A DNA stretch of 64,000 nt from Eledone cirrhosa (lineage: Eukaryota). Position numbers and translations under genes: made by a program. The first letter of the stretch is position 1, and every line of letters starts with the position of its first letter. The stretch covers positions 25,668,001 through 25,732,000 of the forward strand of contig OZ024755.1 of the NCBI GenBank assembly GCA_964016885.1, in the 5' to 3' direction. Shown here piece by piece: positions 2,961 to 59,490 of this stretch. Under the pieces are notes generated by a model. The model was not told the DNA's origin. It ran no database searches and was given only the letters and a program-made list of their open reading frames with translations.

Positions 2961-3058
2961 TATATATATATATATTGTTTTTGTGTATTGTATGACACAA
3001 CAGACAAAAACAAGATTGTGTAGAACATAACAAAGGAGGGACACAAAATCTAAACATA

Positions 3059-3101
3059 GTCACTGAGGAGGTCACAGAATGTGTGACGAAAGAGCTTTAA
3101 C
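3059..3101 (+). ncRNA. Hammerhead ribozyme motif, type I (family D)
   Basis: GUCA-CUGAGGA-G-GUCACA/UGUGAC-GAAA-GAGC-UU-UAAC. One stem I mismatch; same family as 10562-10604. Confidence 0.5.
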
Positions 3102-3107
3102 AATATA

Positions 3108-3191: not shown

Positions 3192-3669
3192 CTATCTAGG
3201 GCGGGTAAAATTTCCGAGATCCATGGACGAGTTCTCTCCAGCGGTCTCTGTCCCTCATTATCTCTGCCATGTCCTGCGTCTCCAACAGACCAGTGTCTGT
3301 CCTTAGGGCATCAACATATGTTAACCTTGGTCTTCCTCTTCCAGTGTGTCCATGTAGGGGCTCCCACAGCTTGAGATCAGTGTGGAAGTCGGACCTTCGT
3401 AAAGACCTGAAAATCCGCCTCTTCATTGCTGTAGTGGAGTCTGTGCAGCTGTACGGTTTTGAGACTTGGACACTGACCAAGAAACTCACTCAGATGGTGG
3501 ATGAGTGCTACACGAGAATGCTGAGGATGGCTCTGAACATTAATCAGTATACACTGAGGATGAAAAACTCAAAGCTGTATGGGAGTCTCCCAAAAGTCAG
3601 CTCAAAAGTGACACAGCGGAGACTGAGGTTAGCTGGACATGCTCACCGACATCCAGATTTGACATTGCA
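3192..3669 (-). mobile_element. RTE-clade LINE 3' fragment with inverted 5' part
   Basis: Minus strand 3196-3370: LWEPLHGHTGRGRPRLTYVD...DRDRWRELV*. Plus strand 3370-3670: VWKSDL..KIRLF..VESVQLYG.ETWTLT..RRLRLAGH. Direct repeat ctcattatatat at 3180-3191 and 3670-3681. Confidence 0.85.
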
Positions 3670-4133
3670 CTCATTATATATATATACGTGATGATAAATA
3701 AGATTTCGTTTGTCTAGGTCAAATCAAGTATTATTGTATGTATGTATTTATTCTGGCTGTCTGAAGCATAATATATTTTGATTTATATTTACGCCCTAGG
3801 GAATGTTTGACCAATTTGCAATTTTTTATATGTTTTCATCTTTCTCTAGGACTTCTGATATTTTCTTTGAAAGCAAAGTTTTTGCATTGGCCTCTAAAGT
3901 ACTATCTGATAGTACATTAGAGGTCAATGATAGTAACTATTATATAAAACTGCTATTTTCTGGGTGTTTATATTTCACAAGATCTTTTTTAATGGAGAAA
4001 GTAAGACATTTTTTTTTAATCCGTATTTTTACTTTACAATTTTACGGTCAATGATTAAATGATAATATTGTAGTTGTGGGTAGGGCCCTTGGTCTCCTCC
4101 TGGCAACCAACATTTTTAGACATAGTCCGCCAA

Positions 4134-5206: not shown

Positions 5207-5213
<7 letters not shown>

Positions 5214-5392
5214 GGAGCTTCTACAGGACTAGTACTGTTTCATTCAGATGAAATCTTCCTGAAGATTTCATCTGAATGAAACAGTACTAGTCCTGTAGAA
5301 GCTCCTTCTATAAAATAAAAAAATTTTACTCTGCCATGTATTGAGTACCTTACTTACTGTGGTTATCCCCGACTCAACCCGGGACCTACGTA
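5207..5392 (+). mobile_element. Fold-back pseudo-LTR-like module in (TA)n
   Basis: Perfect inverted repeat 5207-5258/5261-5312, then a unique tail with TTGAGTAC at 5341. Related copy at 19441-19500 (-). Confidence 0.7.
5255..5301 (+). ncRNA. Hammerhead ribozyme motif, type I
   Basis: CUUC-CUGAAGA-UUUCAUCUGAAU-GAAA-CAG(UACUAGUC)CUG-UA-GAAG. Stems I and III pair; the loop contains the palindrome ACUAGU. Confidence 0.7.
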
Positions 5393-7760: not shown

Positions 7761-7799
<39 letters not shown>

Positions 7800-7920
7800 A
7801 GGTGAGTTTTATTGTAGTACAATAAAGCAATGCAGATATCGGATAAGAAGCACTCTACAGTTTGTGGGACTGGAGTATGCATAATATAAGATCAAAAGAT
7901 GGTTAAAGGAGTTCCATATA

Positions 7921-7987
7921 TTTTATTATGCGCATTTCAAAAACAAACATCATCAAACAATAATATTTGTGTTTTCATCAGATAAAA
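7921..7987 (-). ncRNA. Hammerhead ribozyme motif, type I (mirror of 8120-8186)
   Basis: Reverse complement of the 8120-8186 motif. Confidence 0.75.
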
Positions 7988-8119
7988 CAGGAGAACATGA
8001 TATGAAGGCTAAAAAAACACTTGTTGATAGTGCAGTTTTAAATCAACATAGCAACATATGTTGATTTAAAACTGCACTATCAACAAGTGTTTTTTTAGCC
8101 TTCATATCATGTTCTCCTG

Positions 8120-8186
8120 TTTTATCTGATGAAAACACAAATATTATTGTTTGATGATGTTTGTTTTTGAAATGCGCATAATAAAA
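8120..8186 (+). ncRNA. Hammerhead ribozyme motif, type I
   Basis: UUUUAU-CUGAUGA-long stem II (ACAAAUAUUAU/AUGAUGUUUGU)-GAAA-UGCGCA-UA-AUAAAA. 6-bp stem I; palindromic stem III. Confidence 0.8.
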
Positions 8187-8218
8187 TATATGGAACTCCT
8201 TTAACCATCTTTTGATCT

Positions 8219-8280
<62 letters not shown>

Positions 8281-8473
8281 GGTAATACTGTATATATATA
8301 TAGTGGATAGTATCAACGCTTGGCTAAGTTTGACTCAACAAGGCGTTTCCATAGTAATGCTGCGAGTACGCGGTGATTTCTATGTAGTTTACACTTGGAT
8401 TTATATATATATATATATATATATAATGAAATGACAGGAGGCTGGATTTGTGTAAATCCTTGAAAGGTTTATT

Positions 8474-8531
8474 ATACTATGATCATTTCAATGACCTGGT
8501 TCCGTATGAATCCGGTGATATCATCAGGTAT
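8474..8531 (-). ncRNA. Hammerhead ribozyme motif (mirror of 8696-8753)
   Basis: Reverse complement of the 8696-8753 motif. Confidence 0.6.
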
Positions 8532-8695
8532 TCGAAATATAATACGTGAATGTAATAGATAAAATCCATGGGGCTGAAAATCGAGGACCCGAGGGCGACC
8601 GGCTGAGGTTGAAGAAACAGAATAGCGGTCGCCCTCGGGTCCTCGATTTTCAGCCCCATGGATTTTATCTATTACATTCACGTATTATATTTCGA

Positions 8696-8753
8696 ATACC
8701 TGATGATATCACCGGATTCATACGGAACCAGGTCATTGAAATGATCATAGTAT
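8696..8753 (+). ncRNA. Hammerhead ribozyme motif, type I
   Basis: AUAC-CUGAUGA-imperfect stem II-GAAA-UGAUCA-UA-GUAU. Palindromic stem III. Confidence 0.65.
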
Positions 8754-8947
8754 AATAAACCTTTCAAGGATTTACACAAATCCAGCCTCCTGTCATTTCA
8801 TTTTAATATTTAACTCCGTAATAGCACCACCAACTACAAAAACAAAGACGGTTGAACTGCCTTACGTTGAGTACTCTCTATATTATTGCATTACGATTGA
8901 CCATACGGAATAGACCAGCTCTATACAGTGGTGAACCTCAAACCTGA

Positions 8948-8988
<41 letters not shown>

Positions 8989-9125
8989 TAAAAACAATGA
9001 AATAAACACACAGAACAAGTTCTTTATATTAAAAAATTAAACATTTTACGATCGTTTCTGGGATATATATGTGTGTTGGTATGTATATCATATAGATCTA
9101 TGTAAAATATTTTGGTAGACTTACC

Positions 9126-9260
<135 letters not shown>

Positions 9261-9864
9261 CGTATATACAAAGAGAGATACGCGCAAATACATACATACA
9301 TATATACATACATACATACATATATACATACATACATACAAGCAACTACATGTATATATAAAGAGAGACGGGCAGACAAACAGACAAGCAGACAGGCAAA
9401 GCAAAATAATGAGGTTATTTGATTTTTTGGTAGAAAGAAATAAAAAATAAGAGAGACGGCATCGTACTCACTCACACGCAGACAACCAGGGATATTAAAT
9501 AATATATATTAAAACATACACCACACACAGTCATCATGAATAGGATTGGTAGAAGAGATATGTAAAAGTATAGAAGCAAAATGGCTGACTGAGTATTAGA
9601 GCCAGCTGTGTTAGTTGCGGTATTTACCAGCATGTAAAATTATCGTCTGCTAATGTTAGAGCAGCCATGTTTAATAGCGCCAATTAACCTACTATTTATT
9701 ACCTGAGTGGTACAGATTGATATCAAGGGTAAATTTTAAAACTTAAATATTCCAGCAGAAATATTGGTGGAGCAATAATATAGCAATGTAGCAAACATAC
9801 ACACACACAAGAGATACATATGCATATATATGTGTATGTGTCCGTTCGTGTGTATGTGTATGAG

Positions 9865-9946
<82 letters not shown>

Positions 9947-9976
9947 ATCAAAAGATGGTTAAAAGAGTTCCAAGTA

Positions 9977-10043
9977 TTTTATTATGTGCATTTCAGAAAC
10001 AAATATCATCATGGGATGATATTTGCGTTCTCATCAGATAAAA
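9977..10043 (-). ncRNA. Hammerhead ribozyme motif, type I (family of 8120)
   Basis: UUUUAU-CUGAUGA-GAAC GCAAAUAUCAUC/GAUGAUAUUUGU UUCU-GAAA-UGCACA-UA-AUAAAA. Confidence 0.75.
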
Positions 10044-10100
10044 TAGGGAGGCATGATATGAAGCTTAAAAAAAACTTGCTAGCAGTGAAGTGTTAAATCA

Positions 10101-10191
<91 letters not shown>

Positions 10192-10279
10192 CGTAAACAA
10201 GACCGTTATTGCTCCAACCAATTTATTTACCTTCGATAACTACCCTAAATAAACATACACCTATACTACACACACACAC

Positions 10280-10407: not shown

Positions 10408-10648
10408 ATATTGTTATACTTTGGGAGGGTCATGTTGCCAATAAGAAACACACGCACCAGTTGCTTTCACTCCAATTTATTATAATAAATTTATAAATTT
10501 AGGAATTTATAAATTTCCGGTTGGTTGGTTGGTTCCACAACCAGATGATTGTTTATATATTGTCAAAGTTCTTTCGTCACACATTCTGTGACCTCTTCAG
10601 TGACTTGTGCGTGTGTTTCTTATTGGCAACATGACCCTCCCAAAGTAT

Positions 10649-10656
<8 letters not shown>
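10408..10656 (-). mobile_element. Pseudo-LTR-like family D with inverted terminal segment
   Basis: Arms at about 10408-10457 and 10607-10656. Same family at 14162-14335 and 25232-25347. Confidence 0.75.
10562..10604 (-). ncRNA. Hammerhead ribozyme motif, type I (family D)
   Basis: GUCA-CUGAAGA-G-GUCACA/UGUGAC-GAAA-GAAC-UU-UGAC. Confidence 0.6.
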
Positions 10657-12131: not shown

Positions 12132-12795
12132 TAGTCAATGTCCCACCACAGTTAAACCCTTCTTTATTTAATAGTCAAGCTATACCTAGTGAGCTAACGT
12201 CCCACCACATTTAAACCTTACTTTTTTTAATGATCAAACTATACCTAATGAGCCTGTCCCACCACAGTTAAACCATACTTTATTTGATAGTCAAGCTATT
12301 CCTAGTGAGCCTATGTCCCACCACAGTTAAACCATACTTTAGTTAATGATTAAGCTATACCTAGTGAGCTAATGTCCCACCACAGTTAAACCCTTCTTTA
12401 TTTAATGATCAAGATATACCTAGTGAGCTAATGTCCCACTACAGTTAAATCATACTTTAGTTAATGATCAAGCTATACCTAGTGAGCTAATGTCCCACCA
12501 CAGTTAAACCATTCTTTATTTAATGATCAAGATATACCTAGTGAGCTAATGTCCCACCACAGTTAAACCATACTTTATGTAATGGTCAAGCTATACCTAG
12601 TGAGCCAATGTCCCACCACAGTTGAACCTTGCTTTATTTAATAGTCTGGATATACTTAGTGAGCTAATGTCCCACCACACTTAAACCATACTTTATGTAA
12701 TGGTCAAGCTATACCTAGTGAGCCAATGTCCCACCAGAGTTGAACCTTACTTTATTTAATAGTTTGGCTATACTTAGTCAATCAATGTTCCACTA
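12132..12795. repeat. Minisatellite, about 59-bp unit, about 11 copies
   Basis: Unit tcaagctatacctagtgagctaatgtcccaccacagttaaacc...tttatttaatga. Confidence 0.95.
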
Positions 12796-13339
12796 CATGC
12801 AAACGATGGTGATTGGAGCGGAGATAATTGATGTTTCATGTCATTCTGTTTGATATAAATAACTCCGGTAAATATAATAGTTATGTTCTAATTCCAGGAA
12901 GAGACCAGATTACTATACAGTGCAGGCAGGTGTTCCTGGGAACATTGTACGATAGGCTAACTAATGTACGTGTGAAGACATCTGTTAGAAAACTGTCAGA
13001 TAAACGACAGGATGTTGTAATATATATAGAGCATTGAGTCTCTTTCTAAAGATCAAGGGAGATAATGCATCAGTGCAAGAAATCTAGAAAATCGTAGCTT
13101 CTTTATCATTGGTTGTTTTTCTTTCTTTCAAATGTGTTTATCAACATTATCAACATCATCATCATCATCATTATTATCATTTCTTCGGTAGTTTCAGACA
13201 AATTTCTATACATCACCTGGTGCACCTCCATTTCCCTGAAGTCTGGGCAGCATTGTGTTTTTATTTTGGGGATAAGATCTTCGAATAATGGTCTTACTAG
13301 TATAAAACTGGTAAAATCCTGGTATATATATATATATTT

Positions 13340-13704: not shown

Positions 13705-14163
13705 AAACAAATAGTAGAAAAGAAAAAGATTTTTTCAGTAGAAAATGTTGAAGAGATTCTTTCAGTAAAATATCAAAACATTAATTTATTTACAATACCG
13801 GTTTCAGCATTATATGCATTGTCAATTGCGGATATGCAGAATATTGTTAAGTTGCATATTTGTACAAACAGTGATAATAATAATACAAAGGGGAAGAACA
13901 ATTAATTTTCACGTACATATTCATTCAGAGAAGAGAGTTCATTTCTCTGTCCATCCTTCTTTGTTAATAGCTTGGTTATGACAGTCATTACCAAGCTATT
14001 TGTACAAATATGCAACTTAACAATATTCTGCATATCTGCAATTCACAATGCATATAATGCTGAAACAGGTATTGTAAATAAATTAATGTTTTGATATTTC
14101 ACTGAAAGAATCTCTTCAACATTTTGTACTGAAAAAATATTTTTCCTTTCTACTATTTGTTTA
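13705..14163. repeat. Imperfect palindrome, about 165-bp arms, with decayed hammerhead
   Basis: 13705-13868 versus 13999-14163. The left arm (minus strand) reads CAA-UUGACAA-GCAU/AUGC-GAAA-CCGG-UA-UUG. Confidence 0.85.
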
Positions 14164-14335
14164 TTGTTATTCTTTGGGAGGGTCATGTTGCCAATAAGAA
14201 ACACACGCACCAGTTGCTTTCACTCCAATTTATTATAAATTAAATTTATAAATTTAATTTATAATAAATTGGAGTGAAAGCAACTGGTGCGTGTGTTTCT
14301 TATTGGCAACATGACCCTCCCAAAGCATAACAATA
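14162..14335. repeat. Palindrome of the family D 3' end
   Basis: About 85-bp arms centred on aaatttataaattt. Confidence 0.9.
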
Positions 14336-14353
14336 TATATATATATATATACA

Positions 14354-14748
14354 TATAATTGAACATACAAGAGAGATAAACACAAGTATAAGCATACATG
14401 TGTTCGAATTATAAATGACCATGTTTACTAGGGTGAAAAAAATACTAACTATAACAATATGGTTTGCCAGACTTAATTTAAAGTAATAAATCAAGAAAAA
14501 GAAGAACAAACCTATATTGGGCAACTGCTTGAAAAACCCAGACAGTTATATGAACTGTTTCGCAAAATTATTAAGCGACGGTAACACCAACTTTCTGCTC
14601 ATCAGTTAGTTGCTCAATAAGGTTTGTTCTTCTTTTTCTTGATTTATTATTTTAAATTAAGTCTGGCAAACCATATTGTTATAGTTAGTATTTTTTTCAC
14701 CCTATGTATGCTTATATTTGTGTTTATCTCTCTTGCATGTTCAATTAT
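14354..14748. repeat. Imperfect palindrome with hammerhead in the spacer
   Basis: 14354-14526 versus 14608-14748; the right arm lacks about 30 bp. Confidence 0.85.
14535..14611 (-). ncRNA. Hammerhead ribozyme motif, type I
   Basis: CUGAUGA-GCAGAA/UUUUGC-GAAA-CAGUU/AACUG-UC. GUC site; stem I imperfect at the inversion junction. Confidence 0.75.
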
Positions 14749-14827
14749 ATTACACGGCTCGGAAAAACTTCTTTCTTGGAGCTATTTATTTGTAAAAGAC
14801 TATTTTAAGTTTCTAACTCAATATATG

Positions 14828-15815: not shown

Positions 15816-16569
15816 TTGTAGTTGCCTCCCTTGTAACAATTAGTATTTAACATTTGTCTAGTAGTAACATGTTTAAGTACTCTCAGGTCTCGGATAATGC
15901 CCCCCCCCCCCCTCTACCGCTCTTCTTATAGATTTTTCAGATTTTCTCTAACACCCACCCCGCTCTTATTCCACCACCACCACCACCCCACACTTATTAA
16001 AATTTGCTAATCTATCTCCTGCCAAAATTTTATTTTAAGTGGTAGCATTACTGCGACAATTAATTTTTTTTAGACATTAAAAAACGTTATACATAACAAA
16101 AAAAGAACATTACAAGAAACCCCATATATTATAAAATAAATAGCATGGGTTGGGGTCTCAAAATGTAAACTAAACAACTAATTCTGGTTTTGAAAAAATC
16201 AACAGAGACAAACTTTGAAAAATTACCGATTCTCCACCCCCGCTTATTTCAAAACCCCTTCTCCTATTATTTGGAACCCGAAAGTAGTTGTAGATATTCA
16301 GATATATTTCAGGCAATAGAAGTAAACATTATACTTTACCTTTCAACCTTACGGCGTCGATAAAATAAAGTACCAGTAATGCACTGGGATAATTGCTGGC
16401 CTTGTGCCAAAAGTCGAAACAATTATATTTAGATGAGAGTACACCAGACCGTACTTTCATCCGACTCACGTTAACTTCATCTTTCATCCTTCATCAGTCG
16501 ATAATATAGACGCCAAAACAATTAATGAATACAAGAAATTATTTTAAAAGTAAAAACAACAAAAATTAA

Positions 16570-17435
16570 TGTTTCCCAGGTCAACGAGGTTTCTACAATT
16601 CATCAACTCTTTCTCCACTGGTCAATGATACCCTGGCCAACAAGGTTTCTACGACCCACCAACTTTCTGTCAATTGGCCAATGATACCCAAACCAATAAG
16701 CTATCTACAGACCCACAACTCTCTGTCCGCTGGTCAATGATACCCAGGTCAAAAAGGTTTCTTCCCCTGGTCAATGATACCCAGGCCAAAAAGGTTTCTT
16801 CCCCTGGTCAATGATACCCAGGTCAAAAAGGTTTCTTCCCCTGGTCAATGATACCCAGCCCAAAAAGGTTTCTTCCCCTGGTCAATGATACCCAGTTCAA
16901 AAAGCTTTCTTCCTCTGGTCAATGATACCCAGTTCAAAAAGCTTTCTTCCTCTGGTCAATGATACCCAGTTCAAAAAGCTTTCTTCCTCTGGTCAATGAT
17001 ACCCAGCCCAAAAAGGTTTCTTCCCCTGGTCAATGATACCCAGTTCAAAAAGCTTTCTTCCCCTGGTCAATGATACCCAGTTCAAAAAGCTTTCTTCCTC
17101 TGGTCAATGATACCCAGTTCAAAAAGCTTTCTTCCTCTGGTCAATGATACCCAGCCCAAAAAGGTTTCTTCCCCTGGTCAATGATACCCAGTTCAAAAAG
17201 CTTTCTTCCCCTGGTCAATGATACCCAGTTCAAAAAGCTTTCTTCCTCTGGTCAATGATACCCACGTCAACAAGGTATCTACATCTCCACAACTCTCTGT
17301 TCCCTGGTCAATGTTTCCAGAGTCAACAAGGTTTCTAGAGCCTCACAACTCTATGTCCGCTGGTCAATGATACCCAGGCCAACAAGGTTTCTACAGCCTC
17401 ACAATTCTCTGTCTCCTGGTCAATATTTCCCAGGT
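16570..17435. repeat. Minisatellite: 37-bp core array flanked by about 56-bp units
   Basis: ctggtcaatgatacccag(g/t)tcaaaaag(g/c)tttcttcc, about 14 copies at 16730-17260, with longer variants on both sides. Confidence 0.95.
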
Positions 17436-17454
17436 TAACCAAAAACAAACAACA

Positions 17455-17715
17455 ACGGGGGTATTTCTCTCGCCCATGTTACATCCAAGGTTTACAACTG
17501 TTCTCAGAATTCAACCAATTATCGAGGAAATGTTACGACCGAATCAAAGTGGTTTTCGTCAAGGTCACTCCACCACATTCCATATCTTTGCTCTTCGCCG
17601 AATAGCAGAAGAACTCCAAAACCATGGCATGGGCGTTGTATTAGCATTTATTGGTTTCCGAAAGGCCTATAACTCCATCGATCGCAAGAAAATGCTTGAA
17701 ATTATTTATAATGAT
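17455..17715 (+). mobile_element. RTE-like LINE reverse transcriptase fragment
   Basis: RIQPIIEEMLRPNQSGFRQGHSTTFHIFALRRIAE...LAFIGFRKAYNSIDR, matching the Q.GF and DF.KAFDS RT motifs. Confidence 0.85.
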
Positions 17716-18307: not shown

Positions 18308-18392
18308 AGTAACACAACAGTTAGTTCACCATACCGAGAACAATAAGATGAAACAATTGTTCTCGGTATGGTGAACTGACTGTTGTGTTACT
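18308..18392. repeat. Palindrome, about 37-bp arms, hammerhead 3' half at the turn
   Basis: GAAA-CAAUUG-UU at the start of the right arm; (TA)n follows. Confidence 0.75.
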
Positions 18393-21515: not shown

Positions 21516-22094
21516 CGAGGGCAATCCCAAAAGTAAGCTCTCTGAATCGATGGGAACGCTACCTCCAAGTGCGAAGTTCGCGCAGTTATTCGGTTTTTGA
21601 ACGCAAAGAGCGTTGAACCGATTGAAATTCATCGCCAATTGACGGAAGTGTCTGGACAGTCGTGCATGGATGTCAAAAACGTTCGCAAGTGGTGTAGAGA
21701 GTTTACAGCCGGTCGTACTGAAATTTACGATGAACAAAGGAGCGGGAGACCGTCAATTTCCGACGAGACAATCGCAAAGGTTGAGGAAAACATGCGTAAA
21801 GATCGGCGGATCACTCTGGATGCTCTCTGCATTTTGGTTCCTGAGGTTTCCCGAAGCACCATCCACAGGATTTTAACGGAAAAGTTCCAATATCGGAAGG
21901 CACTTGGCGGTAGCGTTCAACGGGAGCTCCATTCTCAACGGCTGCCAAGCCAAGATTGAGCATGCCAGCGAAGCGCGCGCATGCTTGTTTGGGAGTGAAT
22001 GAAGCACCAATCACAACAGTGTTGCCAACAGCCGTACGAACAGTTTCTCTGCGTCCCCATCGCTTTGGAGATCTTACTTTTGGGATTGCCCTCG
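21516..22094 (-). mobile_element. Mariner-family transposon, internally deleted and inverted
   Basis: 22-bp TIRs cgagggcaatcccaaaagtaag with TA on both sides. N-terminal HTH fragment EVRAVIRFL..EIHRQL..VRKWCREF..RSGRP on +; start MELPLNATAKC on -. Confidence 0.9.
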
Positions 22095-26249: not shown

Positions 26250-26858
<609 letters not shown>

Positions 26859-32681: not shown

Positions 32682-32914
32682 ATAGCAAAAGAATGAAGAA
32701 TAACATGGTCAGCTGTACAATAGGGTTTATTTATAGTATAAACAATTGTTTCTTTAATCAGGTGAGTCTAAAAGCCGCTGATCGTTAGAAGTTACGTCAC
32801 TCGACTTCTAACGATCAGCGGTTTTTAGACTCACCTGATTAAAGAAACAATTGTTAATACTGTAAATAAGCCCTATTGTACAGCTGACTACGTCATTCTT
32901 CATTCTTTTGTTAT
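32682..32914. repeat. Imperfect palindrome, about 110-bp arms
   Basis: 32682-32792 versus 32804-32914. Decayed CUAACGA-UCAG/CUGA...GAAA-CAAUUG-UU starts at the turn. Confidence 0.85.
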
Positions 32915-33368: not shown

Positions 33369-33464
33369 ATATAATAATAATAATAATTTATAACTTTACT
33401 GGTTTCACAAGGTTCATGATTGTCAAAAGTTAAGAGAGATGGAGAAATATATGGTTATGCCGTA

Positions 33465-33526
33465 TTTTATCTGATGAGGATGTACTGAAAAAACAGCACA
33501 GTACCTCCGAAATATATATAATAAAA
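33465..33526 (+). ncRNA. Hammerhead ribozyme motif, type I, fully canonical core
   Basis: UUUUAU-CUGAUGA-GGA.GUACUG/CAGUAC.UCC-GAAA-UAUAUA-UA-AUAAAA. Confidence 0.85.
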
Positions 33527-33668
33527 CATATATTTTGATTATGTGAATGTATCCATTTATTAATATTTTGAATAATATTAATAACTCCAGAAAATGTCTT
33601 TGTTGAGTGCTTTTAATCTATTGTAAAACTATTCATTGAATAATCAATGAACCCTGTTTAACATTTGG

Positions 33669-38880: not shown

Positions 38881-39374
38881 CACTGTTATATATAGTTCCC
38901 ATCCAACAGATCAAATACAGAACAAACATATATCAACTGGAGAAAGAAATGCCCAGAAAACAAAGTTTATATTGATCCAAAGTAACATCATTAAAAAGAA
39001 GTTACTGACTGACATAGAAATTGATCAGATCAGGCAATCAGCACAAAATCAATGAAGTGAAACTGAAATTTATGTAATTGAAAACAAAATAATTTATGTA
39101 ATTGAAAACAAAATTCCACTACGAGCCTGGCTCGTAGTGGAACCCCTGACAAAACAAACTAAAGAAATGATCAAAAGAGTGAGAGGTTCACCCGACCAAG
39201 ATAAAGCTCAAACTGAAAACACTGAACAGAATATCAATGATGAAGAAATTAATGCTAATAAACATGAAAACCAAAAGAAATTCCATTCTGTACTCAAAGA
39301 GGCAGGAAAGTACAGGAAAGAACTAATACATGAAAACATACACCTACATACTGATGCTGACCTAATTCAAACTA

Positions 39375-39495
39375 AGGCAGCAAAGATGGGGGCCTCTCCT
39401 CATTTTGCACATACTGTCCGTGAGTGGCCTGATGTCCAATTTCCAGGACATTGGTTGATCATCGAGGTCCACATCAATTGCCAGCAAGAAGCCCT
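39375..39495 (+). mobile_element. Tc1/mariner transposase catalytic fragment
   Basis: GASPHFAHTVREWPDVQFPGHWL..RGPHQLPARSP, matching DGAPPH...WP.RSPDL. Confidence 0.65.
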
Positions 39496-40455
39496 TACTA
39501 CTAACTACTTCAATACATCTGCCACATACAAAGTCTACTTTTTCTGTTAGTCTACCTGCTATCCTACCATGCCTCTTGTGTAGCCATGTTTTACATTGTG
39601 TACATGGTATAGAGTTCTCACCCACTCCTTTTCTACATATTAAGTATGGCCACTTCCCTGACAGAATCAGAGTCCTGTCTTCATTGCTACTTACTAAGAC
39701 TTCCATTTCAGCCTTTCCTAAATTTACTCTGAGTCCTTTTGATTCTAAGTTCTGTTTCCACAATAGGGAATTTTGATTCCACAGATTCAGCTATAGGAAC
39801 CAAATTGTCAGTATATAGAAGTTCCCTATACAGCCTATTTAAACTCTTTTGTTATGGCCTGGAAAACTATAATAATCAGGAGATGGCTGAAGATCAAGCT
39901 TTAAAGCATCACTACCTGTACTTTGAATTCCTCACTAAACTCTCACTACCTACTCTCACTTTACTGATAGTTCCTCTGTATATGGCTTGCATTTCTCTTA
40001 CAAGCCATTCTTCTACACCTAGCTTCCTTAAGGACCAACAGATGACAGATCAGGGTACTCTATCAAAGGCTTTCTCCAGATCAAGAAAGCTAAATATAGC
40101 AACTTACATATAGCTAGGAACTTCTCTTGTAGTTGTCTCCCTAAGAAAAGGGCACCCGTGGTGCTTCTTCCTGGCACAAAGTCAAACGGTATCTCATCTA
40201 ATTTGACTCTTTCCCTAATTAGTATGGCTAAAACTCTTTACATCACTTTCATCTCTTGCTTCATCAGTTTTATGCCTCTGTTGTTGTTCCTTTCCAGAGC
40301 ATCAGTGAGGCAAATTACCCCAGTGTCATTCCAAACAAACTTTTCTCCAACAACATCAAATTTTACAATGGCTCATTGCTTTAATATGAGGCACCCCTTA
40401 CATCTCTCGTCCTCACATCACATTATATTGGCAAACTTACTTTCACCTTTGATGA
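39495..40455 (-). mobile_element. RTE-clade LINE RT region, decayed
   Basis: FLDLEKAFDRVP..WSLRKLGVEEWLVR and LESKGLRVN..SGKWP..CRKGVGENSI.CTQCKTWLHKR. Confidence 0.85.
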
Positions 40456-50629: not shown

Positions 50630-51090
50630 GAAACAGAATATGTTATACATAACCGGATTAACGATGTGTAACATAGATAAAACTGTTACATAACCCGATT
50701 AACGATCTGTGACATAGATAAAATAATATATTACATAACATGATTAATGATGTGTGACATACATAAAAGGATATATTATATAACATGATTACTGATGCAA
50801 CATATACATAAAAGCATGTATTGCATAAATTGATTAAAGGTCTGTGACATGAAATATATTACATAACCTGATTAATGATGTGTGACAGAGATAAAATAAT
50901 ATATGACATAACATGATTAACTGTGTGACAGAGAACATGATTAACAATGTGTGGCATACATAATGTATTACATAACACGATTAATGATGTGTGACATACA
51001 TAAATAATATATTACATAACATGATAAATGAAGTGTGATATAGATAAAATATCATATTACATAACTTGACTAGCGATGTGTGACATATAT
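50630..51090. repeat. Degenerate minisatellite, about 46-bp unit
   Basis: Variants of attacataacatgattaatgatgtgtgacat. Confidence 0.85.
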
Positions 51091-51092
51091 TA

Positions 51093-52110
51093 GTCTTGAG
51101 AGCACCTCTCTCACCTGTCCTAATCATATATTCGTTCTATATAACCTGACAGATAAAATATCAACTTTGGTCTTGAGAGCACCTCTCTCACCTGTCCTAA
51201 TCATATATTCATACTATATAACCTGACAGATCAAATATCAACTTTAGTCTTGAAACCACCTCTCTCACCTGTCCTAATCATATATTCATACTATATAACC
51301 TGACAGATCAAATATCAACTTTGGTCTTGAAACCACCTCTCTCACCTGTCCTAATCATATATTCATACTATATAACCTGACAGATCAAATATCAACTTTG
51401 GTCTTGAGAGCACCTCTTTCACCTGTCCTAATCATATATTCATACTATATAACCTGACAAATCAAATATCAACTTTGGTCTTGAGACCACCTCTCTCACC
51501 TGTCCTAATCATATATTCATACTATATAACCTGACAGATCAAATATCAACTTTGGTCTTGAGAGCACCTCTTTCACCTGTCCTAATCATATATTCATACT
51601 ATATAACCTGACAAATCAAATATCAACTTTGGTCTTGAGACCACCTCTCTCACCTGTCCTAATCATATATTCATACTATATAACCTGACAGATCAAATAT
51701 CAACTTTGGTCTTGAGAACACCTCTTTCACCTGTCCTAATCATATATTCATACTATATAACCTGACAGATCAAATATCAACTTTAGTCTTGAAACCACCT
51801 CTCTCACCTGTCCTAATCATATATTCATACTATATAACCTGACAGATCAAATATCAACTTTAGTCTTGAAACCACCTCTCTCACCTGTCCTAATCATATA
51901 TTCATACTATATAACCTGACAGATCAAATATCAACTTTGGTCTTGAAACCACCTCTCTCACCTGTCCTAATCATATATTCATACTATATAACCTGACAGA
52001 TCAAATATCAACTTTGGTCTTGAGACCACCTCTCTCACCTGTCCTAATCATATATTCATACTATATAACCTGACAGATCAAATACAAAGTTATTCTTGAG
52101 ACCACCTCTC
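51093..52110. repeat. Minisatellite, 77-bp unit, 13 copies
   Basis: gtcttgaga.cacctctctcacctgtcctaatcatatattcatactatataacctgacagatcaaatatcaacttt. Confidence 0.97.
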
Positions 52111-52487
52111 TTTCTCTCTATCTCACCTACTCCATTATAAAACCCATTCCAGATTGCATTTCAATGATACCGCTATTACTAAATTTGCTTTCTTTAGATG
52201 GAACTTTTTTTTAAATTTCAACTTTTTCATTGCATTAGTAATATTAATTCTATTGTATGTTACATGGTAGCAACATCCATGTGTTGTGTCTTTGTGTGGC
52301 TAATTGATCCTTTTAACCTTTTTGATACTAACCCCAGTTCTATGGAACAAATTGTCCATTTTAAAGTGTTTATATTTATTTATCTTAACATAATAACGAA
52401 AAAATTAGTTATATTACTAAATCCTTTACAAATTTTTTATTGTTTTTAAAATGAAGTAAATAATTATAGGTAGTTTTTCATTAGCAA

Positions 52488-54522: not shown

Positions 54523-56859
54523 TTATTTTGCTCAGTTACTTAACTTTAAATGCATATAATATATATATATATTGAGAGAGAGAGAGCGAGTGACTTAAGT
54601 CAGGTCATACATTCCATATATGGATCATATGAGCCAAATTAGGTCTGAATATATATATATATATATATATATATCATGTATACATAAGTATGTATATATC
54701 ATGTATACATAAGTATGTATATATCATGTATACATAAGTATGTATATATCATGTATACATAAGTATGTATATATGCCTGATGTATTTATGTTGGTTTGTG
54801 ATCTTCTGTAGGCCAACTGCTACACCATAAACATACATCTCTATTTCTCTCTCCTGTGTTTCATGCTTGAACAGTTAGATAACACCTCTTCTATATAAAA
54901 TCTCCCAATTCAGTTGATGTTTTATTAGTACCTTCATTTACAAACAAACCACTTCATTCTCTTCATCATGGGAACATGGTCATATCTTGCTTTACAGTTA
55001 GGACTCTCAAACACAACTTGAAGCAAGTAAAGGCCTAAGAAAATATAGTTTAGAAAGCAACAAAGCATTTATTGTTGACATTGGGTGAGTGTTTGTTTCA
55101 TATTGTACATATTTATCTCTATTAGGGATATTTTAGTTTTATAATTTTCATTAGTATATATTTCTAACGAAATACACTGCCTATGGTTTTTAAATACTTT
55201 TGAAAATATTCAATAATTTTGAGGAATTTATTAAGCTGCTGGTTGAAACATAAAGGTTCTAATATAGAATTATAATGGAAAGTATTTTAGGTAAATATAA
55301 ACACTTTCTTTCAATAACATATTTCTAATGAAATACACTACCTACGATTTTCAAATAATTTGGAAAATATCAAATAATTTTGAGTGATTTAGTAATATAA
55401 CTTTAACTTGGCATTAGGTACTTAAAGTTAGAAAATGTTGATATCCAAACACAGTTGCTACAATGATAATGATAATAGCATTAGGAAATCGGATAAAAAT
55501 CCTTAGAGACAGAAAATATGTGGCCACTTATTGGCAACTTATTTTCTGTCTCTTAGGCTATTTTACCTGAATTTCTAATGCTATTATCATTGTAGTGACT
55601 CTTGTGTTTTGATATCAACATTTTCAAATTTCAAATCATCCAAATGCCTCAATAAATTGTAAGATTTATATCTTAAAAGGTTTTATGTAAAATTATGATG
55701 AAAGATTTTTTTTTTTAAATAAATATAAACAGTTTGGTATCGTAGAACCTGGGGTGGTTTGGTATCATAGAACCAGGGGTCGTTTCAGGTGGTTTGTTAT
55801 CAAAAGGTTAAAAGTAACTCTACAATGTATATATTACTTTCTCACTCAATACAAATAAATGTTGTGTAGAAAATGACTATGTTGTCTGTGTTGCAATATC
55901 CACACCCTTCAGTTGACCTCTAGTAACAACTGGTGAAGAAGTGATAAAGGATAATATGGAAGTTGACATTTCGTTAATATCAGGACAAGGAACTAGGATA
56001 GGTTTCCTCTATTTTGACTGTTTCTCCTTGTTTCAGTTGATTCAAGGCCAGCTTAACATGGTCTCTTGTTTCTCACTTTTGTAAAGCTGTTAGGTTTGTG
56101 TCTCTACAATTATCACTATTATTTTGGCAGTATCGGTAGAGCGTTGGACAACATTCTCTGCGGCTGCTTTCAAATCCTGCTGAGGTTAGCTTTGCTTTTC
56201 ATCCTTATGGGGTCGATAAAATAAAGTACCAGTAACACACTGGGGTTGATATAATCGGCTTTCCCCACCCGCAAAACTATTGGCCTTGTGCCTATAGAAA
56301 CCATTATTATTATTGCTGCTGCTACTACTACTGTTACTGCTACTACTACCACCACTGCTGCTTTCACTACTACTGCTACTACTAATATTCTTGGGCAGTG
56401 GATTGAGAGTCAGTAGAGCATCAGACAAATGTTTTGTGGTGTTTGTTCTGGCTCTCTCTGTTCTGAGATCAAATCCTTCCCAGGTTGATAAAGTACTAGT
56501 TATATACTGGGGTTCATCTAATCAACTTGTCTTCCCTACTAATTGATGGCCTTGTGCCTAAATTAGAAACCATTATTATTATTATTATTATTCCTTTATT
56601 GATTTCAGTCATTAGACTGTGGCCATGCTGGGGCACCCCCTTGAATGGGTTTAGTTGATCATATTACACCCTCCCCCCCTCCCCGAGTACTTATTTTATC
56701 AAACTCTTTTTCTTGAACTGCTAAGTTGCAGGGCATGAACAGTATATGTAGTCACAGATATGGACATATACACATGTTACTAATTTTGGTTAATATTTGT
56801 AATATCTTGATACTAGTATAGTAGGTTAACAACTGTGATTTAGTAATCATTTCAATCAT

Positions 56860-58692: not shown

Positions 58693-59490
58693 GGAGGCAC
58701 ATGGCTTAGTGATTAGAGCATTGGCCTTGCAATCGAAAGGTTGTGAATTCAATTCTCAGACCGGGTGATGTGTTGTTTCCTTGAGCAAGACACTTTATTT
58801 CACATTGCTCCAGCTTACTCAGCTGTAGAAATGAGATGATAGGACTGGGGTCCCTATCATTTCACTGCAAAGTGGTCGTGGAGGTGCCACGGCAAAAAAG
58901 CACCCAGCCCACACTGTAAATGAGGTTGGTGTTAGGAAGGGCATCCAGCTGTAGAAATCAACCCAAAATCAGTTCCTGTATGAGCAAGAACGGGACACTA
59001 CCCACAACAGGACAACCCGTCTAACCCATGCTAGCGTGGAAGAACGGGACACTACCCACAACAGGACAACCCGTCTAACCCATGCTAGCATGGAAGAACG
59101 GGACACTGCCCACAACAGGACAACCCGTCTAACCCATGCTAGCATGGAAGAACGGATGTAAAATGGTGATGATGATGATGAACCTGTATTGCAAACACTT
59201 TCATCATCATCATCTGTCCAATGGACATCACAATGGGATGTGTTGTGGTATCTGTTCCAGTTCTGTACATTCATCATCACCATTTTATGTCCGTTCTTCC
59301 ACGCTAGCATGGGTTAGACGGGTTGTCCTGTTGTGGGCAGTGTCCGATCAGCTGACCTTGTCTTGCTCATACGGGAACTGATCCTGGCTTGATTTCTACA
59401 GCTGGATGCCCTTCCTAACACCAACCTCATTTACAGTGTGGGCTGGGTGCTTTTTTGCCGTGGCGCCTCCACGACCACTTTGCAGTGGGA
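58693..59490. mobile_element. Two SINE1 copies tail-to-tail (58693-59180 +, 59268-59490 -)
   Basis: Mutually inverted; the + copy has a triplicated 57-bp unit at about 58985-59155. Confidence 0.85.

Follow-up and report, generated by a model that had tools for sequence, protein, structure and literature searches.

A palindrome with a hammerhead motif on each strand in Eledone cirrhosa as a probable head-to-head insertion of Penelope-like pseudo-LTRs

A 64,000-nucleotide stretch of the Eledone cirrhosa genome (assembly GCA_964016885.1, contig OZ024755.1, positions 25,668,001 to 25,732,000; hereafter the window, with positions counted from its first letter) contains a hairpin that carries a hammerhead ribozyme motif on each of its strands. 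Viroid-like RNAs have one hammerhead per polarity within a rod, and the original prediction for this locus was of an ambisense layout of that kind. The question raised by the hairpin is whether it descends from such an RNA or whether a single ribozyme was duplicated in some other way. We addressed it by delineating the insertion, by locating the element from which its arms derive, and by comparing it with similar palindromes elsewhere in the genome.

Structure of the hairpin and its hammerhead motifs

The inverted repeat consists of arms at 7876-8050 and 8057-8231 that are complementary at 173 of 175 positions and are separated by the spacer GCAACA. The only mismatches, at 7879-7880, coincide with the boundary of a tail that is present on one side. 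Essentially perfect arms had been predicted, and this was borne out. The predicted coordinates, 7881-8226, do not cover the full extent of the insertion, which occupies 7793-8226 and includes the 88-nt tail reaching to about 7793; the arms and ribozymes had been seen, while the one-sided tail, the (TA)n target and the family had been missed. The features of the locus are as follows.

7766-7797, no strand: (TA)n target, left part (read from the sequence)
7793-7880, minus strand: one-sided "tail" of a Penelope-like element (PLE), 88 nt between outer ends A and B (positions 3646-3733 of the reference element L031)
7881-8050, minus strand: left arm, a pseudo-LTR (pLTR) copy with tail (the "B" arm), sense on the minus strand (mapping on L031)
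7919-7989, minus strand: type I, dimer-type hammerhead motif, predicted cut after 7927 (scan; mirror of the plus-strand motif)
8051-8055, no strand: junction, a short slipped repeat of the arm start (40-nt junction pattern)
8055-8226, plus strand: right arm, a pLTR copy without tail (the "A" arm), starting at CATATG with its A at 8056 (L031 mapping, inner-end counts)
8118-8188, plus strand: type I, dimer-type hammerhead motif, predicted cut after 8180 (scan, folding, variants)
8222-8279, no strand: (TA)n target, right part (read from the sequence)
9940-10103, minus strand: older solo arm of the same family, 83% identity (reference 3642-3476)

On the L031 reference, window positions 7793-8050 map to 3733-3477 at 96.5% and positions 8055-8226 to 3475-3645 at 95.9%. 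Both ends of the insertion lie within (TA)n, and for this reason a TSD is unreadable; the outer boundary of the tail is itself blurred by TA microhomology and becomes unambiguous from 7798. The two arms are identical over the 151 nt compared, which indicates that the insertion is young. A 40-nt pattern spanning the junction has one match in the genome, the window copy itself. The solo arm at 9940-10103, located between (TA)n runs, stops at the same inner point as the arms of the hairpin.

A descriptor scan of the window placed type I hammerhead cores at 8120-8186 (plus strand) and 7921-7987 (minus strand), pointing outward, exactly where they had been predicted; helix I can be extended to 8 bp, giving the longer motifs listed above. 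In the plus-strand motif, helix I pairs 8118-8125 with 8181-8188, CUGAUGA occupies 8126-8132, GAAA occupies 8169-8172, the palindrome AUGCGCAU lies at 8172-8179, and helix II (8133-8168) has 15 pairs with a C.U mismatch at the fourth step. CUGAUGA, GAAA and the AUA triplet, which together form the core of a type I hammerhead, are all present. The description of the motifs as "complete" therefore holds for the catalytic core, but helix III has only 2 pairs, closed by the palindromic loop GCGC within AUGCGCAU, helix II opens with A-U in place of the G10.1-C11.1 pair, and there was no Rfam match. At the gathering threshold no Rfam family matched anywhere in the window, and at E<=10 the 60 matches within 7800-10200 were to generic hairpin-type miRNA models and the like, hammerhead families being absent.

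Folding predictions gave helix III of the monomer a probability of 0.00 and a penalty of 4.2 kcal/mol, so that a stable monomeric helix III is not predicted; as an intermolecular duplex, helix III was assigned -10.5 kcal/mol. The motif alone folded no better than shuffled sequences (z -1.1). Among 55 distinct variants from this family and related families, helix II steps 1-3 and 5-9 were paired in 46-54, with compensatory changes, and step 4 was unpaired in 54. The AUA triplet was found in 54 of the 55, loop 3 was a perfect palindrome in 38, and G10.1-C11.1 was G-C in 3. The ribozyme is thus of the dimer type, with a 2-bp helix III and a palindromic loop, and is predicted to be weak alone. Because an isolated arm is predicted to be a poor monomeric ribozyme, failure of such an arm to cleave would not count against the motif.

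When the whole hairpin was folded, all three hammerhead helices had a probability of 0.00 on either strand, at a penalty of about 105 kcal/mol. This agrees with two earlier expectations, namely that a transcript of either strand through the hairpin contains one ribozyme together with its own antisense, here with complete sequestration predicted, and that the long duplex inhibits the ribozyme. According to these models, the ribozymes would need dimerization or protein help and would be silent inside a read-through hairpin. A perfect duplex of 170 bp is also a plausible substrate for ADAR or Dicer.

Parent element and genome-wide class

In the 3.0-Gb genome, sequence of the arm type flanks an intact 800-amino-acid ORF with RT and GIY-YIG (L031) and near-intact ORFs at three further loci (L044, L045 and L046). 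The latter three have the order arm-tail-ORF-3′ UTR-arm, corresponding to a pLTR formed by partial tandem arrangement, with the hammerhead in the pLTR upstream of the ORF. The L031 ORF contains YRDD and LIY..FTYFG motifs, and the 800-amino-acid protein has 68 homologues with 32-39% identity. Traits given for Hydra-clade PLEs in the available text of PMC8557442 are DKT, a CxCX5C linker, CxxC plus CxH, lack of CCHH, RWK and a (TA)n target. The motifs found here are SDKTNN (DKT), CNCRIKNKC (CxCX5C), CNLC (CxxC) and CLH (CxH); CCHH is absent, and there is one C between LIY and FTYFG. The N-terminal motif is RWT in L031 and RWI in L044-L046, and RWK occurs in 6 of 9 aligned homologues. Pfam matched neither RT nor GIY-YIG on the L031 ORF, and its GIY-YIG model matched just 1 of 10 aligned members, L031 not being the one; a PDB search with the partner ORF returned no relatives. 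By its sequence, each arm is the pLTR of a Hydra-clade, C-terminal EN+ Penelope-like element, a clade placement made by motifs. The L031 ORF also has an Asn-rich insert between the RT thumb and the linker (L031:2900-3400, residues about 500-660) that most homologues lack and that recalls the N-rich inserts noted in Adineta Penelope elements (PMC3846280, in the text available).

Copies were counted genome-wide by exact sequence pattern. The hammerhead pattern has 18,010 matches (9,042 plus, 8,968 minus), and the reversed control has none. For the first 100 matches, neighbours within 8 kb were arranged outward (-/+) in 28 cases, inward (+/-) in 3 and on the same strand in 4; 15 of these 28 outward gaps are shorter than 200 nt and none falls between 178 and 967 nt. 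The genome has 4,421 outward hammerhead pairs with a spacing of 105-135 nt, which belong to several related families. Loci were sampled from the first 120 Mb of one contig, where 28 of the first 50 close outward pairs are of the window family; with the window copy, this makes 29 loci. A tail is present on exactly one side in 28 of the 29 (27 by script and L054 by eye; L053 is a tandem). Within a locus the arms differ by a median of 1 change, compared with 7 between loci, as determined for the 24 of 29 loci in which both arms could be aligned (L052, L053, L066, L067 and L090 are truncated, tandem or missing an anchor). The two arms of L070, with 6 differences between them, look as though they had different parents.

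The inner end at which the arms turn is fixed and lies some 70 nt upstream of the core of the hammerhead. Of the palindromes counted by turning point, 1,778 are centred at CATATG, 125 close to the ribozyme cut and 30 a further 35 nt or so upstream, and on the first two of these numbers the ribozyme cut was rejected as the source of the inner end. By eye, in about 6 of 50 listed cut-site palindromes both arms begin no more than 3 nt from the cut, and 17 of 50 in the CATATG-centre list are perfect palindromes. In the 29-locus sample the CATATG centre is perfect in 10, and the remaining junctions have small inserts or deletions. Like the solo arm in the window, the solo arm at L015 ends at this inner point. 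Arms 98-99% identical to the window arm are also present on long copies with pieces of the 3′ UTR or ORF (L038, L043).

In contigs of independent runs, inverted pieces of many different lengths are joined at base 8056, and contigs begin at the equivalent of this base in three runs from two organisms. Together with the 18,010 pattern matches against none for the control and the 1,778 palindromes with one centre, this shows that the class as a whole is neither a chance occurrence nor peculiar to this assembly, although none of these contigs crosses the particular copy in the window.

In related families (22 loci: L058, L061, L065 and others among L068-L100), short one-tailed palindromes share the 5′ part of the hammerhead and have their turning point 55-70 nt upstream of the core, in many cases at a start resembling CTATCC. 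A fixed inner end seems to be a general property of the whole group.

Several other features of the window were recorded. A second, unrelated palindrome lies 200 bp from the first, at 8422-8948, with arms 8422-8601 and 8626-8805 that match at 179 of 180 positions around a 24-nt spacer. Each arm has a hammerhead-like core (CUGAUGA at 8700 on the plus strand and 8527 on the minus strand, palindrome AUGAUCAU), and a one-sided extension reaches 8948, all within (TA)n; the architecture is the same and the family is different. Its pattern has 3,874 matches genome-wide, its MFE fold is not a hammerhead, and a parent ORF was not found within 1.5 kb of the 6 loci checked. A solo hammerhead of a related family is located at 33380-33620 (core 33465-33526, plus strand), with a G-C pair closing helix II and the loop AUAU. 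A small hammerhead-like family with CUGAGGA or CUGAAGA cores (3063 plus, 10600 minus) is represented at 3055-3105 (plus strand), 10412-10652 and 14165-14332, within or related to short inverted repeats beside (TA)n. At least eight further short inverted repeats, many adjoining (TA)n, lie at 5210-5309, 13705-14162, 14353-14750, 18308-18392, 26251-26757, 32686-32910, 55422-55634 and 58863-59487 and are probably more inverted retroelement ends. Transposon fragments at 21546-21956, 17371-17715 and 3209-3688 (plus strand) and 39365-39790 (minus strand) comprise a mariner-type HTH fragment and an RT fragment, both matched by Pfam, and two that, judged by eye, we take to be LINE-like RT C-terminal fragments. 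A search for host exons, in which 80 of 202 candidate ORFs were scanned, yielded only the mariner-type HTH and RT fragment. Tandem arrays occupy 12133-12797, 16568-17438 and 50632-52111, with periods of about 59, 56-112 and 77 nt.

Inner and outer ends, and the origin of the second arm

The base that precedes ATATG was examined where it is not the genomic C. G was present in 2,095 cases and A or T in 2,136, while about 21% G is expected from composition. A subfamily SNP was considered as the source of this G and rejected, as it was a SNP in genomic context at 0 of 30 G loci. The base was scored by script as untemplated at 15 of 30 G loci and 9 of 30 A/T loci, and by eye at about 14 of the 30 G loci; inspection indicates that the script misfiles at least L150, L159 and L160. 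For 11 of the 30 G loci the partner arm could have served as the template, and 3 are explicable by slippage. In contigs from independent runs, too, G or AG separates the two sides where pieces join at 8056; the junction of the window copy itself has no extra G. In L1 and SVA insertions an untemplated G is recognised as a sign of a capped start (PMC4859970, as far as its available text goes), and in Penelope and Chlamys elements the TSS lies in the pLTR according to the text available of PMC8557442. As judged from these counts, the inner end is likely the transcript start of the element, and the excess of non-genomic G suggests a capped start. Alternatively, a C-adding preference of the RT, a terminal-transferase bias or a strong pause could cause the cap-like G.

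As regards the outer ends, 12 of the 15 pairs that were mapped, mostly longer ones, combine an arm that stops at site A with one that stops at site B; the rule is broken by L033, L035 and L050. Long pairs lack a mirror point at the junction, and which of the two arms is longer varies (compare L031 with L032 and L041, and, among short pairs, L003 and L052). When 25 of 28 pairs were classed by arm length (L035 and L039 look like two insertions and L044 is a tandem), 14 were short-short, 1 short-long and 10 long-long, with p about 4e-6 against independence. Such coupling would follow from the use of both start sites in one pLTR of a single RNA. We infer two reverse transcriptions, since a longer tail-less arm is not a fold-back copy and a tailed arm cannot be copied from a tail-less one. 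This fits biochemical data on a PLE protein, PAc Poseidon, which in vitro cleaves and extends both strands, with RT starting at two sites that bound the tail (PMC11167929, in its available text).

We therefore favor, with a probability of roughly 0.7, the interpretation that the hairpin is a very short and young head-to-head double insertion of pLTRs in (TA)n, generated as both broken DNA ends copied PLE RNA. The RT-endonuclease of the PLE would cut both DNA strands at (TA)n, and both ends of the one cut would then prime reverse transcription at two fixed sites on the element RNA, A and B, which, to judge from the DNA, may be two internal RT start sites. Initiation at the upstream pair of start sites would yield two cDNAs by run-off, about 170 and 260 nt long, ending at the 5′ (probably capped) end of the element transcript, a position at which the fixed inner end behaves like the end of a template. 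The 3′ ends of the cDNAs would become linked either because CATATG, being self-complementary, anneals or through end-joining that leaves slipped inserts. A single RNA or a single source locus would probably supply both cDNAs, and the ribozymes would be passengers inherited from the pLTR. A more specific proposal, to which we give slightly less than an even chance, is that the short palindromes record a dimeric RT-endonuclease priming both cut ends on one capped transcript, in a "double strong-stop" run-off.

An alternative that retains the PLE pLTR origin is that the second arm arose when the first cDNA folded back and primed itself at CATATG, instead of through a second reverse transcription. 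Self-priming explains the perfect CATATG centres (10/29, and 17/50 by eye) equally well, it accounts for the near-identity of arms within a locus and for the short-short coupling, and it has been proposed for inverted PLE junctions (PMC3846280, in the part available). We nevertheless consider it unlikely, as long pairs have non-mirror junctions and many centres hold inserts instead of a mirror point. There are also partial signs that short pairs without a mirror centre are no rarer than those with one and keep to the A/B rule. In addition, the tail-less arm of L032, L041, L003 and L052 reaches further in than the tailed arm, which is impossible for fold-back copies.

The short arms might also constitute a non-autonomous, SINE-like family with an internal promoter, transcribed from the centre outward and re-copied in trans, in which case short-short palindromes would give rise to others like themselves. 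The strong split between short-short and long-long pairs would be expected, solo arms stop at the same point (window 9940-10103, L015), and pLTR promoters are internal in Penelope (PMC8557442, text available). Against this stand the 98-99% identical arms on long copies (L038, L043), which show no separate short lineage, and the in vitro requirement of the Anolis element, whose RNA needed sequence beyond the RT start that short copies lack (PMC11167929, text available). This makes a SINE-like origin improbable.

The hypothesis closest to the original prediction, that of an ambisense rod RNA, similar to a viroid or retrozyme, which replicates as a unit and has a working ribozyme in either polarity, draws on the presence of a ribozyme core on each strand of a perfect rod and on the conservation of helix II pairing across families. 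The arms, however, are identical to the end of a coding PLE, the ribozyme is predicted to be fully sequestered, the junction is unique in the genome and junctions elsewhere vary. There is one cut per strand with no tandem unit or head-to-tail repeat, and palindromes centred on the cut site are rare (125 vs. 1,778). The ambisense layout is thus better described as one ribozyme duplicated at insertion, and we regard a replicating rod as very improbable.

An assembly or library chimera from a fold-back read, for which it can be said that none of the reads available spans the window copy, is scarcely credible given the one-sided tail, the fixed family-specific ends and the (TA)n flanks at many loci, and given that contigs from independent runs show the inverted joints at an identical base.

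Comparison with known systems and implications

The preferred reading, a double insertion of pLTRs, places the window hairpin close to published elements. Hydra-clade PLEs (Craig et al. 2021, PMC8557442) likewise have a single RT plus GIY-YIG ORF, a hammerhead in the pLTR, a (TA)n target and inverted 5′-truncated copies with a tail at one end. In the available text of that paper they have RWK, a tail of 30-40 nt and a unit of less than 3 kb, whereas the values here are RWT, 88 nt and about 3.7 kb. About half of the outward pairs in Eledone consist of two pLTRs with a fixed inner end, an arrangement of which the same text holds no description that we met.

The ribozymes resemble the dimer-type hammerheads of metazoan PLEs (Cervera and de la Peña 2014, PMC4209133), which, in the text available, have a type I core, a long helix II and a tiny palindromic helix III and are present in thousands of copies. 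Those ribozymes show low activity in vitro, and in Schistosoma dual motifs occur 100-700 bp apart on opposite strands. The Eledone motifs differ from that description in lacking an extra base between positions 9 and 10.1, in having A-U or G-U instead of G10.1-C11.1 in most variants, and in their conserved pyrimidine mismatch at the fourth step of helix II.

Head-to-head inverted pLTRs with junction palindromes are also found in Adineta vaga Penelope elements (Arkhipova et al. 2013, PMC3846280), which have an optional tail on one pLTR and Inr-like motifs in the pLTR; self-priming is proposed there, in the part of the paper available, whereas the non-mirror junctions seen here favor two priming events. 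PAc Poseidon of Anolis (Frangieh et al. 2024, PMC11167929) agrees with the model proposed here in its cleavage and extension of two strands, its two RT start sites on either side of the tail, its AT-rich target and its hammerhead, which is dispensable for insertion and protein-assisted. It belongs to a different clade, and its models, in the available text, include neither head-to-head products nor run-off at the RNA 5′ end. Non-LTR retrozymes (bioRxiv 10.64898/2026.07.22.740005, from the text available) have hammerheads in common with the window hairpin.

Compared with viroids, HDV-like RNAs and retrozymes, the locus has neither a tandem monomer nor a head-to-tail repeat that would give a circle, its junction is unique and its parent is coding. 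Viroid-like RNAs differ further in that the two motifs here are the same ribozyme duplicated, not two that co-evolved.

The window hairpin, then, adds a new family to a known clade and repeats a known arrangement: inverted 5′-truncated copies with a tail at one end (PMC8557442) and palindromes at the junctions of PLE insertions (PMC3846280) are already published, as the available text of both papers attests. What the present analysis adds is the fixed inner end with its cap-like base and the coupling of arm lengths. A search of the open-access literature did not find short fixed-centre PLE palindromes or two-ended priming described. As a single locus the hairpin is ordinary transposon debris and is not to be counted as a viroid-like element, and the thousands of paired opposite-strand hammerheads that arise in animal genomes as insertion by-products call for caution in this respect.

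How tandem and inverted PLE insertions form is named as an open question in the PLE literature (PMC8557442, in the text available). The class described here bears on the inverted insertions, for which the A/B outer ends, the non-mirror junctions, the coupled lengths and the cap-like G constitute specific predictions. If the short palindromes do record priming of both cut ends on one capped transcript, the centre of the hairpin would reveal, to the exact base and with nothing but DNA sequence, where transcription of each family begins, and each arm would keep a promoter-proximal ribozyme facing outward. Transcripts could also start at such a centre and hold one arm only. The genome would then hold thousands of sources of perfect 170-bp duplex directed against the active element. 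With the fixed inner end as the likely start of the RNA, the unexplained origin of inverted insertions would become testable.
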